A DNA stretch of 58,991 bases, the filler included, from Circinaria calcarea (lineage: Eukaryota), in the NCBI GenBank assembly GCA_051942165.1. It is 10 parts of 10 records of this genome, joined end to end, with 100 filler letters (N's around TTAATTAATTAA, not from the genome) between each part and the next. Parts side by side here need not be neighbours in the genome. Positions count along the whole stretch, not along the records: positions 1 to 5,828 come from JAVECS010001771.1; 9 more parts are not named here. One strand, given 5' to 3'. This document shows positions 1 to 22,000 of the stretch, in pieces (the first letter of the stretch is position 1; the number at the start of each line of letters is the position of its first letter). The translations under genes and the position numbers were made by a program. The notes below the pieces were generated by a model. The model did not search any database and was not told the DNA's origin. It was given only the letters and a program-made list of their open reading frames with translations.

Positions 1-569
1 GGAAGGGGGAGGGGAGGAAGAGGGTACAAAGAAAAAAAAGAAAAAAGGTAAGGGATTTCATTCACAAGCGGAGTGCGCACAAGAGAAGTCTGACAGACAG
101 AGCTTTGCGGGTAAATACTAATGTAAAAACTATCATAGTAAAGCGACAGACTTGGATGTCACGCATGGGCATGCTTATAGCGCCGACGGCCGGTAATTTT
201 CTTCATATTGCCAGTTGCTGTACCTTTGGAAGATGTCTTTTCTCGAGATGTCAGCGGCCTTTTACTTGATTTCAAAATGGCAGTAATTAATGGCTGACCC
301 GTATAATCTTGTGATAAAACCGAATCCAACGCCAGAATCAGCTGTAGAAAAAATCTCCACTGTCGGGAAAAAAATGCTAATAACCAAAGCAATTTGACTA
401 TGGTTCAGGAAACAGCGAGAAAAATCGAGGGGATTTAAATATTGCTCCTTCTGTGGCTTCTAAGCAGGCGGAAGTGATTACCTCGACTCCAAAGCGCTCT
501 ATTGAACGGCGCGCAGTATAGCTCCTCCAGGCGTAGCTTGCTCTATAAACTAGTGATGGTGCGTATCTA

Positions 570-3500
570 TTAACCCGTTAAAGGTGTCATATACGTCCCC
601 CCGTAGCTTTGCAGCAACTTTTCGATTTGATGATACATTTTGAGAATATGACTCAAATCCGCTATGCTGATATCCCACTCCTTTTTCTCCATGTTCCTTT
701 CAATCTTCAAACGCATGTATAACGCACAATCCAATGGCGTGCCAAATGTCATGAACCGCGCAGACGAGTTGTAGCACCAGAGGTAATTGTCATATAGCAT
801 CTCGTCTCGTGGTGTGTTATACTTTGTGTTAGCCTTGAGACGATGCTTCCGATCCATTTTGCTCTGGTCAGCGTATTCTCGGAAAACGTTGGGCTTTACT
901 CCACATTTCAGCAAGACATCCACAACGCTGGGTAAGCCAGCGTAAGCGGCATAGTGCAGTAAGGTGCCTCCCTCCTCGTCGACTTGCTCCAGCATCCCAG
1001 GATGTGTGACCGGGAATGAGGATAGGACGTGTTTCTGGATTATAGACTTTATCTGATATTCAAAGAAGATCGAATGTGCGCGATCATTCCGAGACATCAC
1101 ATCCAATATGCGATGCTGCCTCACAAGCATGGCAATAACGTTTAATCCGAGGATGTGTTCGGTGGGTTGGGCCCCAGCTCCTAATAAGATATCGACCACA
1201 TCTAGGGATGAATAGGCTGCTGCTGCCAAGGGTATTTCCCTACTTAAGAAGTCGTGAACTGGTCTAGCACCATTGTCAAGCAGAACTTGGGCGATCAGAG
1301 GGAGCCTTTCTGGTTTCACTACGGGATCCAGGCTTCGAGGCAATTGAGCAAGTGCAGTGAGACCTTGATCGTTCCTGATGTTAGGGTCGGCGCCGCATTG
1401 CAACAATGCAACAACAGCATCGAGGTCACCTTTGCGGACAGCTAACATAAGAGGCGTAAAACCTCCCCGGTTGTCCCCAGGGAACTTTGTATAGTCCAAG
1501 CAATTTGTCAGAATGTCAATTTGGCCACCCATTGCCTGTAATGCTTCTATCGTTTGGCGAATGCTGCTTTGGCGATTTGCAGAGGATCCGCTAAACGCAG
1601 GATACCACAATCGAGTATTAGCGAAAGTCCGACCAACCCAGTTGTATTCTAGGCGATGGAATGGTGTATAGCCCTCCTCGTGGGTCTGCGAAATATCCAC
1701 GGTGTTGTTATGCGGAGCGATGATGGCTCGCAGAATTTGCCAGTCGTGGTTCGTTGCGGTTATATCCAGCATACTAAGACCTGCAACTGGGCTAGCCGGA
1801 AAGGAGTAGTCACCTTGGCCTTGCTCTCCATACACCTCCATATCCCGTACGTTCGTATCATCAATGTAAGAATCGACTTGGTTCCGCAAGCCAGCATCAG
1901 CGCCGATAGATAGAAGTGCAGTAGCTGCAGTTGGGTTTCTTGCGGTGACGGCCCAGTGTAAAGGAGATCCACGGGGCCATTTGAATGGAAAATGGTGGTT
2001 GAAATGTGGCTTTTGAGCCATGGCATTGGGATTTCCTCCGTGAGCCAGCAATAGGCCCGCAACCTCTTGGATGTATTCAGTGGGAAAGTTGAAAAGCCAG
2101 TGCAAGCATGTAACCCCTCTTGACTGCTCAGCAATCGAAGCGTCAGCGCCGTTACGACATAAAACTCTCACAATTTCCACAGATCCCGTCTGGCAAGCTA
2201 GATACAATGCTGTCACTCCCCACAGGTTAATTGTATTGAGAGGAACTTTGATACTGCCAAGCAGTTCTTTGAGCATTTCAAAATTCGCTTCCACCGCCAG
2301 GAAGCTGCAAAGATTCGACTTATCAGTATCACTAGGATTCATTAGTAAAAGCACTGGGATAGGGACTTTCGTCAATTCGGTAGTGGGTATTCGATCGACG
2401 TGATGTTGATTGTAGCCTCCATGCTTGCGAAAGATTTGAACGGCACTTCTCGCCAAAGAGGGGTCGATGTCCCTTAGATCATCTAGAGCTAAGATTGACC
2501 CGGTAGATGCCCCATTATAAAGCCACTGCCTAACCGTCTCGCTGGTGACCTCCTCTGGCCATAATAGATTATACGATGCAAAAACTCTATTAATAATTGC
2601 TTGAGCAGGTATGAAGCCTCTCCCCGCTGATTTCAAAAGAGCTTGTATGTAAAAATTGTTAATATCCGGGCTGGGCTCTGGTATAGTAGTGAATGAACTA
2701 ATAAGAAATATAGCAAAAAGCTCACCCGCAGACATTGAATCTCGGTGGTAATAAACGCTGTCTCTCAATCCCTGGACTATATAGTGATTTATCTTGGGCA
2801 AAGACCATTCGTGATTGAGGACTGACGACGAATCTTCGAAAACAACATCCGGCCAGTACGATCCGCTGTTCTTGAGATCTACGCCTAGTTTTATGCTGTT
2901 GATATTATTATCTTGGATCCTGAGTAAAATTCATATTAGTTAACGAAAGGAATTAAGTCGATCTGAAAATAATATACCATATTTGATAACTTGGGCTATT
3001 GTCTTTCAGAAGATCTGCCGTGTAATATGGCCTGTCCAAACCACGAAATTCTAAAAGGGACTTCAACGCGGCAGATGAAGTCGCGCGCAGAAACGGCGGC
3101 ATCTCAGATATAGACTGGAGAGCATCGATCGCGCAATGGCCAGCTCTTGCTCCCCTGTTTCTAGGTGGAGCTCTCCCGTTAAAGCACAGCATACTCCAAA
3201 TTATCAAGCCGAATGAGTAGTTGTCGGCCTTATAGTATTCGGTTATTGAAAGCTCTGTTCCATATCCATCAATCTCCGGCGCATTCCAGCCGGGAGTATA
3301 CGCCGCCACCTTGATAGATTTAAGGCCCAGATTCTGAGTTTCAACTACAGAGAACCCAAAATCTGCAAGTTTGGCTATCAAGGGGACCTCAGTGGCGGAA
3401 TTAACAAAGACAAGCACGTTTGATGGCTTCAAATCTCCATGAATAATGCCGTTCTCGTGCAAGGCATCTAATCCGGCTCCTATATCCAGGCACAAATGGT

Positions 3501-4200
3501 ATCTTACACTCCAATTCAAACGGTCATCACCACTGAGCAGAAAGTTTCCCAAATCAGCAAGAGCAAACTCCAGGACAAGAAGCGGCGCCCGATGCCAGTC
3601 AGTATTTGATGACCACCCAATCAGTTTAACAATATTTCTATGTGCCCTGAGAACTGGATGGCGGAGTGCGAGGATTTCCAAGTGCATGTCATGCAGCTGC
3701 TTGCTTGCACCTTCAGCCGAAAGATCTAAGCGAATGGAATTATCAACTTGGAAGAAGCTCCTTTTCACTGCGACAGTTTGAGACGCTACATCCAATCCAG
3801 GGGCGGCTTTGCGGATCATATTCTTGTAAACAGTGAACTGGCTGCCTTTGCCGATAGGGTCACGAAGATGGTCCTCAATAGAGAGTGGACCATCGACAGA
3901 AAGTTCTTTGAAGGTGTGCAAGAGGTCATGAATGGTGCTTAGGGAGCGCGTGCCTGCCTTGCTAAGATCCTTCAGATCCGCGGCCAGTGGTGCCTGCCTA
4001 CCTGGCCCTTTGGCGGGAGCGCTCAGTAGTTCGTTGTATGCACTATCGGCTTTGTTGGATACCGAAGCTGATTCAGATAGAATTGCAGTGGACGACGGAA
4101 TAAGCACTAGATCTTGATCACTGGCATCGCTAAGATAGAGAGTGTCATTTGGGATTCCAGCTGGGATTGCGAACTCGAGGTCTACCATGTCACAGCCCAT
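570..4200 (-). CDS. Ser/Thr protein kinase - Sel1-like helical region - ankyrin repeat protein (~1190 aa; exons 4200-2978 and 2919-570)
   Basis: Kinase motifs intact: IGKGSQFTVY, VAVK, HRNIVKLIGW, HGDLKPSN, DFG, WNAPE, ADNYSFG. A 58-nt intron at 2977-2920 (GTATAT...ACTAAT...CAG) joins ORF 2953-4200 in frame to ORF 570-2801. The second ORF carries ankyrin motifs (GVTALYLAC, GSPLHWAV, GFTPLMLAV, GGTLLHYAA) preceded by Sel1-like segments (LLKSAGRGFIPAQ; WLYNGASTGSILA). Confidence 0.88.
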
Positions 4201-4670
4201 GATGATGTTTAATTACCAGGCTTCGGATGTAATCAAGAGCTATTCTTAGATACCGTCGACGCTGGGCAATGAATTACTGCTTGTCCACAAAAGTTATAAG
4301 TATTACAATGTGGAAAGATTGACTGCCTTGTAGTAGTAAAAGAAAGTGGAAAAGCGCTCGTCAAAGAGCAAAATGCAGCTCATGCTCGCTGGACCCTGAA
4401 TGTAACTCCACCACGAGTACGCACACTAGCCCACCAATAACAGGGCATTGGTGACACACTCTGACAGTACCGTAGTAAGCTCCAAGACATCATCCCTAAT
4501 ATAAATGACAAGGCTGGGACAACTGCTTACCTTAAAGCATGAGGTGCAGATGTGGCGTATTCCGCTTGGCCACCAGCTTCTAAACTCAGCGTCAACAGCT
4601 CAGCATCTGCAGACAAATCTACGGACTGTGCCGTTTAATTTCCCAACTTCTTATACAGACAACCAGCAGC
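4201..4670. promoter_or_regulatory. 470-bp divergent intergenic region, probable shared promoter
   Basis: Lies between ATG 4200 (-) and ATG 4671 (+). TATA-like TAATATAAA near 4497-4505. Function is inferred from geometry only. Confidence 0.4.
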
Positions 4671-5828
4671 ATGCCCGCCTCCGAGGGTATTCTCGGTGTT
4701 GCTTTAGCAATCCCTGGCATTATAGACTTGTGCATTAAATACGGCAAAATGCTCGAGCGAAAAATCAGATTATTTGTGAACAGCGAAGAGCATATGCGTC
4801 TAAAATCGTTTATTCTCCAGCTTATAAATGGAGGTCTAAACGACATGTTATCTTATTTCACAGAGGAGAGCCAGATTCTTACCCGTTCGTTTGCGACTGA
4901 CTTGAGTGACTTGACGCGGCAATTACAAAACTTACTGTTGAAAGCTATTGAGGCCTTCCCACAAGATGCAATTGCAGAACATAAAGGGAGAATGTCAAAG
5001 TTAAAATTTGCGCTATATGACGCCAAGCGAATTGATGAGGCATCGGAGGAGCTGGAGGTATGGTATACTCGGTTCAAGTTACGTGCGGATATCTACGTGA
5101 CCTATGTCCTCCACCCAAAGATGGAACGTAGGCAGATCTCGAGCTTAGACCCAAGGGTGAAACCGAGTGTTACTTCGTCGGAGACCAGGCTCGAACGTCT
5201 CGGCCAAGGCCGCCGTATCGTCAGCAGCCCATTGTTGCTCGACTCCACATCTGGGATGGAGTATCGCCAACTTGCCAACTCCCCATTATGGATACTCAAG
5301 TCCCAATCATCCGCTTCGGACTCACTTGTGGAGTACCGAAGCTACCAAGGCAGCTCTCAAGACGAAATCCACACCACCCGCCTCACAGTTCGCAAGATCG
5401 CCCAAAAGCTCCGTGAGGTTGAATCCACCCAAGGTATTCTGCCTTGTCTAGGCTTCTCCGAAGAGCCTATTGACGACCGCTTCGCCCTTCACTTCTCCCC
5501 TCCCCTTAACGCGGACAACCCCCAGTCCCTACGGACTCTACTCGCAGATCCCCGGAACAAAGATAAGACAATTGGAAAGCAGCATTCGATCACCAATCGA
5601 GTGCATCTCGCGCAAGCGATTGCGTCTTCAGTTGGATATGTGCACTCCTTTGAATTTGTACATAAAAACATCCGCCCAGAGAACATCATCATCTTCGAGC
5701 CCCAGCTGTCAGGCGTCTCCGCAATCGAGCAATCACCACAGCGCTTCCCCTTCAAGATCGGCGAGCCGTACCTAGTAGGCTACGATGATGCGCGGCACGA
5801 GGTCGCCGAAACGCGTTATCTAGAAGCC
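4671..5828 (+). CDS. Putative HeLo/HeLo-like N-terminal helical domain + pseudokinase protein (MLKL-like architecture); 3'-truncated by contig end
   Basis: N-terminus MPASEGILGVALAIPGIIDLCIKYG is a Gly-containing hydrophobic helix followed by ~130 helical-looking residues, as in HeLo/HELL/SesA-type domains. The C-terminal half has kinase-fold motifs (GILPCLGF, RVHLAQAIASSVGYVH, FVHKNIRPENIIIF, PYLVGYD) lacking the catalytic HRD Asp and the DFG. Confidence 0.72.
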
Positions 5829-5928
5829 NNNNNNNNNNNNNNNNNNNNNNNNNNNNNNNNNNNNNNNNNNNNTTAATTAATTAANNNNNNNNNNNNNNNN
5901 NNNNNNNNNNNNNNNNNNNNNNNNNNNN
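5829..5928. other. Artificial contig linker (44N-TTAATTAATTAA-44N)
   Basis: Identical 100-nt spacer with stops in all six frames, seen 9 times in the window. Confidence 0.99.
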
Positions 5929-6821
5929 CACCCCTACTCCCCCGCCTCTACAAATCCTCCACAAATCCACAACCCATCCTACGCCTGCAAAATCCCATCT
6001 ATCTATCCTCCCACTACTCCTACTCCTACTCCAACTCCCCCTCCAACTCCAAGCCACCTCTATAAATCCTTGCAGTATGTGTGCAAACGAAACAGATCCC
6101 AAGGACCCGCAGAGCGGAGCGGCAAGGGGGGAGGCATTTCCCTCTCTCTCCACGTAGTCTAGTAAAGTTTCAAGTTTCCATAGTGCGACCATAGACCGGT
6201 TGGGAAGGTTTTGCTCGGACGGGAATCGGATGGTGCCGTTGTTCAGCTGCGCGCGAAGTGGAGTGTGGTGAGTGGTGAGGGAGTGGAGGTTGAGGGAGTG
6301 GGTGTTGAGTTGATTCAGGATGAGATTTTATTGATTACGGTTTGTATCGAAGAGAGGACTGCATGCGGGTGGTAGTATTAGCTACTGCCTATCTAACGAT
6401 CTAAAGGTTTCCGTCTATCCAAGTCTTCGCTTCTTCTCACCTCTATTATTTTAGCATCTCCATCCTCCGCATACCCCCCCGCACCCCCCTCCCCAGTTTC
6501 ACCCGTCTCAGGCTCACCGTTCAGCCCGAAAAGTCCAGGCATAGGCTGCTAGTATACCGAATCATATCTTCTTCACTAAGTAATCCAGCCAAGCCAGCGA
6601 GATCCATTTTCGGGTACTCCAGTCACTTTGGAGCCTTTGGGAGCTTATATTATTCCATCAGCACCGGTTTCATCGTCAGGTTCAGTTCCCGCAGACGATA
6701 TCATCGGGTCTTTCCTCTTTCCTTGATCCTCCAAGCCGGGCGGTTCTTATGACGGCTGTTAAAGCGTTAGGATCCAAGGAAGCTACTAATGCGTCATCGT
6801 TCGAAAACGCATATTTCTATT

Positions 6822-19008: not shown

Positions 19009-22000
19009 ATGGAAGAATCGTCGAACAGCTCGTTTAGTAATCATATTCTGAGCTATGGAAATCAATTTAGCTCTAGCCTCGTCGTGAACGATGACTCTAT
19101 CAGAGGTCCTAAGGATAAGTCGACCCTCAATATTGGAATATATGGCTCGCAGGCCTTTCTTGACATCCCAAGAAACAATGAAAGAGATCTTTTGGACTTC
19201 ATCTTCTTCCTGGAAACCCACAATGTCAGAGTCGTTCATCCGAGCGACGTCCAACAAGATGATAATCAAATCGTGGGTTTGCAAGGCAGCTCCATGGAGG
19301 TCTTCCCCGGGACTTGGAGAAGCCAGAGAGTTGCGATTAAGCGTATACGTAAATCCAAACTGCCAGATGTTGAGTGGAAATTATCGAACCCTCCAGAATA
19401 CAAACGTCTGCTACAAATGCACCAACAGCGGCAAAGGGATATGCTGTTTGAGATAAAGGTCATGGCTCGTGGATTTTTCTCCAGTCATCCAAATATTGTA
19501 AAGTTATTTGCTGTCTTCTTTGAAGATAACGAACTCTTGCCTAGCGAGTCCAACATCTTCTCTCCTGGGATGATTGTTGAGCTTGCTGATCCGGAATATC
19601 CAGACTTAGATATCTACTTCCAATCCGAACATCGAGCGAGACCGATGCCATTTACTACAGTAGCCAATATCATAGCTGACATAGCCGATGGTCTAACAGC
19701 TTTACACTCTCATGGTGTTATTCATGCTGATTTGAAGCCTTCCAATATTCTGCTCTTCTTTGAATCAATGTCTCGAGAAAGGCCTATCGCAAAGATTGCT
19801 GACTTCGGATTTTGTGGCATATTCACCAGTGCTGAAGGTGCAAGGGGGGGCACATCTTACTGGAACGCACCCGAGATTGTTTTCGAGGAGTTCTGGTGTT
19901 CTAATACTCCAAATGCTATAAAGCCTTCGGCCTTTTACAGGGATATTTTTTCTTTTGGGCTTGTCGCGATTACCACTGCTTTGAACGGTAATTTACCGTT
20001 CGATTCTCAAATCGCCGCGAAGCTTAAGAGCGAAGACTCTGTTGTTGAGAACGTAGTCGCGAGACTTGGATATGATGCAATCGCTTTGGAATATACACCA
20101 GCTCAGATATGCCTGCTCAAACGCTTGGCTGAAGATACATTACGACTACACCCCGACAGTCGTGCGAGTAGTCTAGCTCATGTTCGGTCAAGTCTCCTTG
20201 GAAAGTAAGATTGAACCATTCGAACTACTTATTCCTCAATGACAACGTTTCCAGCAACGGCCAAGCGGCCCACGCTGTATACGAATCTGAAGTAGTTCCT
20301 TTCTCGGCTTTAGATTCTCTAGCAGAGGTGACCAACCCCTCTAGGTCGCATTCCATTGCTAACCATTGTTAGGATGACGAAGAGAGGTTTTTACGTGGTT
20401 TTCAATATCCAAAGGAACTAACTCAATATTCCCAATTACCGATTGCAATAGTCAGGCAATTAGACAACGCTGTCAAATCGATTGACTTAGAAATGACACC
20501 TATACCAGTGTTGGCTCAGTGCTTCCAATGGGCTTGTGCGAGAACAAGTCACTTAGGTTACCTTGATGGAAGCAACGATTACTCTCTGTTCGAAGCAACT
20601 GCAGAGAAAATGCAGAAGCGCGCTCGTACTGACAAATCTTACTCGGCACATTTAACTACTAACATGACCTCCGCGGCGGCTGATCACAGTCTAGAAACCG
20701 ATCTGCAAAGACTTTTGGATGCAGGTGGACTAGTTCCATCAATACTAGACTCAATTCGGCTGGGACATGAAAGGGATTTTAAGAAGCACTGCAAAGTACA
20801 TCATGTTGTATTGAGTGCAACGATAGACCCTGGGTGGGGACCTCTCCATTTTGGTGCTTATTACAATAGATCAGCCTTTCTAGAGCCGTTAGTACGCTGC
20901 GGAGCCGATACGGACAGGAGAGGAGGCATTAGTTCTAATGTAACGCCACTCGCAGTCGCTGCCCTGAACGGAAATGCGGAATGTGTTAGAGAACTTATTC
21001 GGCTCGGAGCAAAAGTTAACCCTCCATTCACGGGGATGTGGCGAATGCCACTGAGGGAGACTCTGATAGCCTCAGATGATACGCAGAGATATGTAGATGC
21101 AGTTGCTATTCTCCTGGACGCTGGAGCCTCCACAGACCATGATGGCTGTAGCACTGCTCCCATCCACATGTCAGCTCATCTTCCGAATACCCTTGGTGTC
21201 TTTCTCAAGCATGATCCGGGTTTGGTGCATTATCGAGATGCAACAAAACACACTCCATTACATTATGCTACTATTAAACGTTGTTTCGAAAGCGTGCAGA
21301 TTCTACTGCGTCACGGTGCCGATGTCAATGCTACAGATGAGTGCGGTTTCACGCCTCTACACTGGGCGTGCGAAATGTCTGGAAAAAATCAAACAAAATA
21401 CCACGGCCCTGGGTCCTGCCCGCCCTTACCTGTTGGTGGAGAAGAGGATGGCCAAAACATTATCAGAACCTTACGTGATGCCGGAGCAGACATAGATGCA
21501 ACGTTATTTGGCGGGATGTACGGTCCAGGGACGACCCCGGACTCATTACTCTATGACATCCAGACAGATGTTACTGAAGAAACAATTAACTTCTCTCGAT
21601 TTACTTTAGATGAGGCTGCAGTCCGCACTAGATTATATAGTACAGAAGAAAGGTTCGGATTCAGTTTCCTACCTACCCTTAAGATCTGTGATTTGATGGA
21701 ATGAGGATTGCACGCGAATAGTACTAACTAGCGTCTCTAGACAGTCCCCTGAGAGTACTACTATCCTCATGCCATGCAGAGGCATATCCCACTCCAGGTA
21801 TTTCCAATGTCGATATGTTATTGAAAATGTCTATCCCAACCATTATGACTTCATAGTCTGCATAGGGAGAATAGACGATTCTAAATACGCACTTCCATCT
21901 CATATTGGATTTGAAATATCTTCGGCAGATGGCCCTACTACAGTCTACGTTATGGGTGGAATTCTAGAAAGGTTTACCGATTTTTGTCCGAAGGATAAGT

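Follow-up and report, generated by a model that had tools for sequence, protein, structure and literature searches.

The pseudokinase MLKL is phosphorylated in its loop by the kinase RIPK3 (PMC12881547, PMC8044208), and the passage cited places the human MLKL residues T357 and S358, both RIPK3 substrates, in the activation loop (PMC8044208). In fungi, a 2025 review of regulated cell death describes NWD2/HET-S, FNT1/HELLF and PNT1/HELLP as pairs in which a repeat sensor controls a membrane-targeting executioner related to the MLKL four-helix bundle (4HB), and gasdermin clusters as encoding a protease fused to WD40, TPR or ankyrin (ANK) repeats without a nucleotide-oligomerization domain (NOD), beside the pore-former that it is thought to activate (PMC12881547). 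One sentence of the same review mentions HELL domains on some kinase or pseudokinase proteins; the review further calls for wider exploration of fungal HeLo/4HB proteins and asks how conserved necroptosis, or a necroptosis-like death in fungi, may be (PMC12881547). A bundle joined to a pseudokinase occurs outside animals in the plant MLKLs (AtMLKL1-3, Pm13), which according to the abstracts are used in immunity. Here we analyse contig 1 (JAVECS010001771.1, positions 1..5828) of a window from Circinaria calcarea (assembly GCA_051942165.1), the window being the whole stretch of 58,991 nucleotides that was analysed, filler included. Contig 1 carries two divergent genes, a kinase-ANK gene on the minus strand and a gene for a predicted MLKL-like pseudokinase on the plus strand, with start codons 470 bp apart. 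The pair is a real, conserved and co-diversifying module. We lean slightly towards reading contig 1 as carrying one instance of a two-gene module that is conserved in Pezizomycotina, in which a repeat-sensor kinase and an MLKL-like executioner would together form a cell-death switch. The features of the locus, in positions along the window, are as follows.

570..2919 (stop 572-570), minus strand: exon 2 of the kinase-ANK gene, encoding a helical linker of ~200 amino acids (aa), the ankyrin repeats and the C-terminal remainder
about 2303-1350, minus strand: ankyrin repeats called by Pfam (Ank_2 2.7e-30, 105.2 bits; Ank 8e-30, 101.7 bits)
2920..2977, minus strand: intron of the kinase-ANK gene, 58 nt, GTATAT...CTAAT...CAG, read from the sequence
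2978..4200, minus strand: exon 1 of the kinase-ANK gene, encoding an N-terminal extension and the complete kinase domain (translation, Pfam)
3282-3274, minus strand: APE motif
3363-3355, minus strand: DFG motif
3435-3433, minus strand: Asp256 of the HGD motif (in HGDLKPSN)
3765-3763, minus strand: Lys146 of the VAVK motif
4201..4670, no strand: spacer between the divergent ATGs, exactly 470 bp going by the ATG positions
4671..5828, plus strand: 5' part of the predicted MLKL-like pseudokinase gene, 386 open codons from ATG 4671 to the contig end
4671..5144, plus strand: predicted N-terminal helical bundle, residues 1-158 (helices 5-36, 38-65, 72-94 and 107-158; AlphaFold2)
5661..5684, plus strand: degenerate catalytic loop HKNIRPEN, with Asn in place of the HRD aspartate
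5811..5813, plus strand: Thr381, candidate phospho-acceptor in the activation-loop equivalent; the position is Ser/Thr throughout the family and lies six residues C-terminal to the invariant Arg

Set beside these systems, the fungal pair, known from sequence alone, resembles RIPK3-MLKL in having a separate active kinase as the obvious upstream partner of the pseudokinase; unlike RIPK3, the fungal partner kinase is linked head-to-head, co-diversifies with the pseudokinase, bears ANK, WD40 or TPR repeats and is not specifically RIPK-like. The arrangement of a repeat-bearing gene beside a helical-bundle protein in a two-gene cluster recalls NWD2/HET-S, FNT1/HELLF and PNT1/HELLP. It departs from those amyloid pairs of NOD-like receptors (NLRs) and HeLo/HELL proteins in carrying no NACHT or NB-ARC domain and no Pfam HeLo/HELL match, and a kinase/pseudokinase switch would replace amyloid templating. 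As in the gasdermin/protease-repeat clusters, a repeat-fused enzyme without a NOD adjoins a putative executioner; here the enzyme is a kinase and not a protease, the executioner is MLKL-like and not a gasdermin, and phosphorylation would replace cleavage. The predicted combination of bundle and pseudokinase is shared with the plant MLKLs, for which the abstracts do not mention a linked cognate kinase-repeat gene.

The divergent layout within one contig, including the 470-bp spacer between ATGs at 4200 (minus) and 4671 (plus), is as an earlier sequence-only reading of this DNA had described it, and the spacer is presumed to be a shared bidirectional promoter region. The product of the plus gene belongs to a widespread family of dead kinases. 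A word-indexed search returned 51 relatives at E<=1e-3 which, by the names in the source records, come from Lecanoromycetes, Pezizomycetes, Geoglossomycetes, Leotiomycetes, Dothideomycetes and Sordariomycetes; the nearest named relative of either window protein is from the lichen-forming fungus Toensbergia leucococca (72% identity). The family alignment has 94 rows (34 database proteins and 60 dereplicated metagenome open reading frames (ORFs), a few proteins being counted twice), and none of them keeps an Asp at the HRD position (Asn in 79, otherwise Gly, Ser, Lys or Arg), while the Lys before that position is present in 94/94. The DFG position reads G-F/Y-D/E and is followed three residues downstream by an invariant Arg; six residues after this Arg a Ser or Thr is found in 94/94 rows (T 60, S 34). 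The protein thereby parallels animal MLKL in its catalytic loop (H-K/R-N), in its DFG position (G-F/Y-E/D) and in a Ser/Thr within the activation-loop stretch. For the 386-aa window copy Pfam gives only weak kinase matches. The 516-aa protein P0004 serves as a full-length comparison, with 77% identity along the whole length of the window copy, and the AlphaFold2 model of this orthologue (predicted local distance difference test (pLDDT) 80.2, predicted template-modelling score (pTM) 0.79) shows an N-terminal helical domain, a very long helix at 107-157 and a kinase fold. Three members (P0004, P0005 and P0012) pass the gathering score of DUF7580 (PF24476) over the kinase-like domain (30-31 vs 27 bits); 25 of 36 family members match this model, and full-length members also match weak kinase models. 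The window copy, lacking the C-lobe, has no DUF7580 match, and the name DUF7580 (a domain of unknown function) was not met in the literature searched.

Copy number within the family was visible at several loci. A second pseudokinase copy or N-terminal exon stands in tandem downstream of the first at L061 (695-5521) and L063 (8895-11167), which indicates local duplication of the family. Four family loci (L003, L013, L021 and L039) are on records that share the prefix Ga0307514, two of them on one 503-kb contig, so that a genome probably carries several copies.

The minus gene presents the opposite picture. Once the 58-nt intron is excised, its two long ORFs join in frame into a product of 1190 aa, encoded in two exons from the ATG at 4200 to the stop at 572..570, and the homologue P0085 aligns on either side of 2920..2977. 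Pfam identifies the kinase domain (Pkinase, E 4e-21), and the beta3 Lys, the alphaC Glu, HxDxKxxN, DFG and APE are invariant in 18/18 aligned kinase-ANK proteins. Judged by these residues, the minus-gene kinase is catalytically intact, with the features expected of an active eukaryotic protein kinase, and all 29 linked partner kinases (28 loci and the window) likewise keep the HxD...N catalytic loop and D-x-G. Judging from the residues retained, catalytic competence is kept in one partner and lost throughout in the other. The sequence-only reading had described an intact kinase fused to Sel1-like and ankyrin repeats. Kinase and ankyrin repeats are supported by Pfam and the motifs; the Sel1-like part is not, with no match to Sel1/TPR models in the window protein (Pfam, E<=1; linker 2918-2300, E<=0.05), and the ~200-residue linker matched no Pfam family. 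Among the kinase-ANK homologues a Sel1 match was found solely in the distant P0117, between its kinase and ANK domains.

The same reading had called the system NLR-free, which holds: no NACHT or NB-ARC match was obtained with Pfam in the window kinase-ANK protein or in the partner ORFs scanned at the 28 linked loci, and the Walker A motif GxxxxGK[ST] was not found in the 1190-aa protein. Tandem Repeats Finder (TRF) detected no DNA-level tandem repeat array in the window ANK exon. In a PDB sequence search, the nearest solved relatives of the window kinase were Roco4, LRRK2 and plant receptor kinases (tyrosine-kinase-like, TKL-like), and the RIPK likeness suggested earlier for the partner kinase has to be dropped in its specific form. 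Fusion of a kinase to repeats is known from RIPK4 and ANKK1 (kinase and ANK) and from LRRK2 and Roco4 (ANK/LRR...kinase...WD40). The minus gene shares this feature, has no Roc-COR GTPase, unlike LRRK2 and Roco4, and lies beside a pseudokinase gene; we know of no paired pseudokinase gene for RIPK4/ANKK1 or LRRK2/Roco4. The modelled protein starts with MGC (4200-4192, minus strand; the position of the start codon is predicted), a start that could signal myristoylation or palmitoylation, as in Src-family kinases. This start is not kept in the orthologue at L001, which begins MSESIG.

Linkage of the two genes was assessed in relatives. Metagenome contigs were scanned with the family alignment, giving 586 pattern stretches, of which 294 proved to be relatives; the census takes in the best 80 of these loci, so that it covers part of the relatives, all of them on metagenome contigs. 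Dereplication at pseudokinase identities of at least 90% left 60 clusters without the window, 39 of which had at least 2 kb of upstream flank; a kinase hidden Markov model (HMM) was built by iteration on the ORFs of the loci, all 8,125 ORFs were scored and neighbours were counted. A kinase ORF lay on the opposite strand within 2 kb, that is, head-to-head, at 28 of the 39 eligible loci, and four others (L013, L016, L058 and L067) had an adjacent kinase in another orientation. A lack of such recurrent linkage had been named beforehand as refuting the proposal, and the outcome is in its favour. The end of the kinase ORF is 109-1465 bp from the pseudokinase ORF in the related loci, and, as background, the flank beyond 3.5 kb, 296.5 kb in total, holds a single kinase match. 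Searches by tblastn with three parts of the window kinase-ANK protein were positive at all six of the closest full-length flanked loci (L001, L002, L003, L005, L006 and L007), where homologues of kinase, linker and, contig permitting, ANK stand immediately upstream on the opposite strand. Consecutive locus tags in Trichoglossum hirsutum tell the same story: its pseudokinase P0017 is GP486_001564, and P0085, the best kinase-ANK homologue, is GP486_001565, with a longest contig of 24,858 bp listed for each. Because the head-to-head arrangement recurs in relatives, it is far beyond chance.

The linkage census is the ground on which we reject chance adjacency. A fortuitous neighbourhood maintained by a shared bidirectional promoter, or a plus ORF that is a dead fragment, is hardly credible. 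Seven of the 39 loci (L021, L029, L034, L056, L062, L063 and L075) have no kinase neighbour and adjoin unrelated genes, such as JmjC, GST and NatA auxiliary subunit genes; the plus gene, moreover, is cut at the contig end, so that its integrity cannot be checked. Against these stand the 28/39 head-to-head loci compared with one match in the far flank, the congruent partner trees described below, and an uninterrupted reading frame of 386 codons with 77% identity to a relative of full length.

The partners vary in what follows the kinase. Pfam was run on 109 of the 135 partner-side ORFs of at least 110 aa at the 28 loci, the 26 left out mostly overlapping a longer ORF in another frame. Pkinase was called in 28/28 head-to-head partners, followed by ANK in six (L001, L002, L005, L007, L009 and L019), by WD40 in nine (L028, L035, L045, L048, L055, L059, L060, L066 and L072) and by KA1 in one (L076); in the other 12, some of them cut by contig ends, no further family was called. 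Long C-terminal extensions are present in 10 partner ORFs for which no repeats were called, and these extensions matched no Pfam family at E<=0.05. At L016 the partner, which is on the same strand (tandem), combines a kinase with TPR_10 repeats (5e-86). WD40 partners contain 126-bp tandem repeats at the DNA level (L055, 565-1636, 8.2 copies, 73%; L059, 6860-7353, 3.9 copies, 87%). Such arrays are a hallmark of fast-evolving WD repeats in fungal HNWD/NLR receptors, and by analogy those of the partner kinases suggest that here, too, the repeats evolve in concert.

Three loci deserve separate mention. The 2075-aa Fusarium duplospermum protein CEP54_006574 (P0118) contains a DUF7580 pseudokinase (764-929, HKNIRSDN), an active-looking kinase (1031-1237) and ANK repeats, and is either a natural fusion of both partners or the product of a gene model that merges two tandem genes. 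At L048 an ORF with pentapeptide repeats (79-1020, minus strand, Pfam 6.4e-25) lies just past the kinase-WD40 partner and may represent either another exon or a third gene. A second kinase ORF (5381-6160, minus strand, Pkinase 4.8e-27) is located at L027 ~3 kb upstream, past the adjacent partner kinase.

The two partners have diversified together. Trees were computed for 29 pairs (28 loci and the window) from the pseudokinase ORF and from the C-lobe columns of the partner kinase, using IQ-TREE in quick mode. They have 11 of 26 bipartitions in common; when the labels were shuffled 2000 times, 0.22 were shared on average and never more than 3. Patristic distances are correlated with a Mantel r of 0.90 (0/2000 permutations as high), and of 0.80 within the 20-pair WD40/other clade. 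The congruence foreseen in the sequence-only reading was thus observed. Both trees divide the pairs alike, with supports of 99 and 100, into nine (W1, L001, L002, L005, L006, L007, L009, L019 and L037) and the WD40/other group; the nine-pair side contains every partner with called ANK repeats, and the L001 pair is the sister of the window pair in the pseudokinase tree. The deep split separates paralogous subfamilies and therefore indicates that the pairs duplicated and diverged as units.

The plus-gene protein was also compared with MLKL. With the full-length family profile (A5), mouse MLKL (4btf_A) ranks first among 177,635 distinct PDB sequences (E 2e-10, 43.3 bits). The match is a single co-linear alignment of profile positions 23-422 with chain positions 14-399 that covers bundle, connecting ('brace') region and pseudokinase, and within it the N-terminal region is aligned to the MLKL N-terminus with high posterior. 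VHKNI is paired with LHRNI(S) and G-Y/F-D/E with GFE, and the family-invariant Ser/Thr falls within the NSISRT stretch of mouse MLKL. This stretch holds what we take to be the mouse RIPK3 phosphosites S345, S347 and T349. When the full-length model was searched with Foldseek, only two of the best 50 rows span both domains, those of AtMLKL3 (6ka4_A, 613 columns) and of mouse MLKL (4btf, 508 columns), and no plant MLKL was among the best 60 PDB sequence matches of the family profile. The predicted order of parts is that of animal MLKL, with a helical bundle at the N-terminus, then a connecting helix and lastly the pseudokinase. Residues 1-158 of the window protein were modelled by AlphaFold2 as four long helices (mean pLDDT 87.9, pTM 0.72), the first of which is hydrophobic (GILGVALAIPGIIDLCIKYG). 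This confident model, with the first rank of MLKL in the PDB, fits the expectation that the N-terminus would form a bundle. We take the plus-gene protein to be MLKL-like by architecture and, probably, by ancestry.

The N-terminal domain taken alone is less informative. The helices of the predicted fungal bundle are longer than those of the animal 4HB, and by itself the bundle shows no detectable likeness to MLKL. In language-model features, clusters of the HeLo family (PF14479) are nearest for the window N-terminus (0.92) and for the distant P0031 (0.94, 175 shared features), two N-termini that are merely 23% identical, and we treat this as a lead only. The sequence-only reading had proposed a HeLo-type N-terminal helix followed by a dead kinase. 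The dead kinase is confirmed (HKN, Asp in 0/94); the HeLo-type assignment found no Pfam match, so that membership of the HeLo family is not demonstrated and the HeLo likeness is a lead. Searches of the Pfam models HeLo, Helo_like_N (PF17111) and SesA (PF17107) gave no match for the window protein at E<=1, nor for 26 further relatives at E<=0.01. With phmmer, the N-terminal 150 aa had 35 matches among 1.84 billion representatives, nearly all of them ~500-aa proteins of the same architecture or fragments; the matches of NLR length were solely two bacterial surface proteins, P0071 and P0079, and were judged spurious. The N-terminal profile matched three short proteins, none with a Pfam family, and the extra matches of an N-terminal HMM over the 8,125 ORFs of the loci were solely split exons or second pseudokinase copies. 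In structural alignment (VIA) with the N-terminal model, the coiled-coil (CC) domain of a wheat resistosome (9h2l_A) reached Z 8.6, tied with many unrelated bundles.

Several results weigh against a death-related reading, and some concern the MLKL match itself. MLKL leads the second PDB match, LIMK1 (37.9 bits), by only ~5 bits, and the bulk of its profile score comes from the kinase-like domain. In rigid structural alignment of that domain (model 187-516), the closest structures are BRAF, HER2, CTR1, RIPK4 and IRAK4 (Z ~20-21), and with the full-length model MLKL is not among the best 50 rows of VIA. Others concern the N-terminus: HeLo, Helo_like_N and SesA are matched by 0/36 family members at E<=5; the 44 weak matches of the N-terminal profile (A2) to PDB sequences at E<=10 include neither MLKL nor HET-s; Foldseek with the N-terminal model returns nothing from the PDB at E<=1e-3, its top rows (designed bundles, FAT domains, the N-terminal domain of ApoE) are generic helical bundles, and HET-s is not among the rows listed; and the best VIA result with this model is a designed three-helix bundle (Z 10.7), with neither MLKL nor HET-s among the best 50 rows. 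No RIP kinase is found among the 39 PDB matches of the window kinase at E<=1e-8. To these are added the seven kinase-less loci, the scope of the census (the best 80 of 294 relatives, all on metagenome contigs), a tree congruence that may in part reflect shared species history, and the incompleteness of the window gene, which is cut at contig end 5828 and lacks ~126-130 C-terminal codons (about a quarter), full-length relatives having 505-523 aa; the remainder is not on any other contig of the window.

These results bear on a reading that we consider unlikely and still the strongest competitor, namely a conserved kinase/pseudokinase signalling pair unrelated to death, in which the pseudokinase is an allosteric regulator, scaffold or localiser and the N-terminal helices serve as an adaptor or coiled-coil. 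Allosteric regulation of a partner kinase by a pseudokinase is well known, linkage and co-diversification show a functional tie and are silent on its output, and the isolated N-terminal domain fails each direct HeLo/MLKL test. A non-death role fits less well with MLKL as top PDB match, co-linear over two domains, with HeLo clusters as the nearest in language-model features for two divergent members, and with a strictly kept loop Ser/Thr, which suits a substrate better than a pure scaffold. The partners also carry ANK, WD40 and TPR, a trio typical of fungal non-self receptors, and their repeats include WD40 arrays whose DNA has been homogenised.

In the cell-death switch that we slightly favour, the steps of sensing, phosphorylation, release, membrane attack and death are inferred. 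The repeat domain, ANK in the subfamily of the window and WD40 or TPR in sister subfamilies, would hold the kinase off until a ligand is bound or a perturbation detected. The freed kinase would act on the pseudokinase, phosphorylating the invariant Ser/Thr of its activation-loop equivalent (Thr381 in the window protein), and the resulting conformational switch would liberate the N-terminal bundle. The bundle might then oligomerise and enter the membrane, leading to regulated cell death or another membrane-directed response. None of the computational predictions made for this scheme in the sequence-only reading (bundle model, linkage, congruent trees, no NLR domain) was refuted. A complex prediction for the L001 pair (kinase 90-413, pseudokinase 180-516), run without alignments or controls, scored 0.01 and counts neither way. 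The broader claim, that fungi have true MLKL homologues hard-wired to their own repeat-bearing activating kinase in a NOD-free and amyloid-free necroptosis-like pathway, is held more tentatively, at somewhat less than an even chance.

Signalling could also run the other way, with the pseudokinase or its N-terminal domain being targeted or sensed as a guarded decoy and the repeat-kinase responding or executing. Such a design would have its parallel in the tandem kinase proteins of plants or in allorecognition, with polymorphic repeats on one protein recognising the other. The direction of signalling is not fixed by sequence, kinase-pseudokinase immune proteins of plants exist in the literature according to the abstracts, and P0118, like tandem kinase proteins, joins DUF7580, kinase and ANK in one 2075-aa model. 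We nevertheless regard a reversed or decoy arrangement as decidedly improbable, in view of the lack of a recognisable executor domain in the kinase-repeat protein and of the predicted hydrophobic-helix bundle, which belongs to the pseudokinase. An invariant loop Ser/Thr on the dead partner and retained catalysis residues on the live one also fit the kinase-to-pseudokinase direction.

The full-text literature searched yielded no account of a repeat-kinase paired in this way, of the co-phylogeny or of the conserved Ser/Thr; subscription journals and supplements were outside that search, and an earlier description is possible. Relative to the single published sentence on HELL-pseudokinase proteins, the new elements are a linked, co-evolving active kinase with repeats of the fungal NLR type and an invariant Ser/Thr as a candidate switch. 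Kinase-driven necroptosis-like death in fungi becomes, with this pair, a defined two-gene question that is directly testable. If the cell-death reading is true, phosphorylation would join amyloid templating and proteolysis as a third way of activating fungal executioners, and comparative immunology would gain a fungal counterpart of RIPK3-MLKL. The release of a four-helix-bundle executioner through a kinase acting on a pseudokinase would then be an ancient design of animals, plants and fungi and not an animal invention, and several paralogous pairs per genome would amount to a diversifying repertoire for innate immunity or allorecognition.

The remaining observations concern the window as a whole. 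It consists of ten contigs of ~5.8 kb joined by N44-TTAATTAATTAA-N44 spacers, and features are not to be read across the following joints.

5829-5928, 11753, 17668, 23573, 29478, 35383, 41287, 47189 and 53091: spacer joints

A search of sequencing runs with the window found a small share of its words in one DNA metagenome run, and no RNA run was listed. On another contig of the window, a kinase-like coding stretch at 19330-19998 (plus strand) was detected by tblastn with P0085 (28% identity, 234 aa, E 3e-12).

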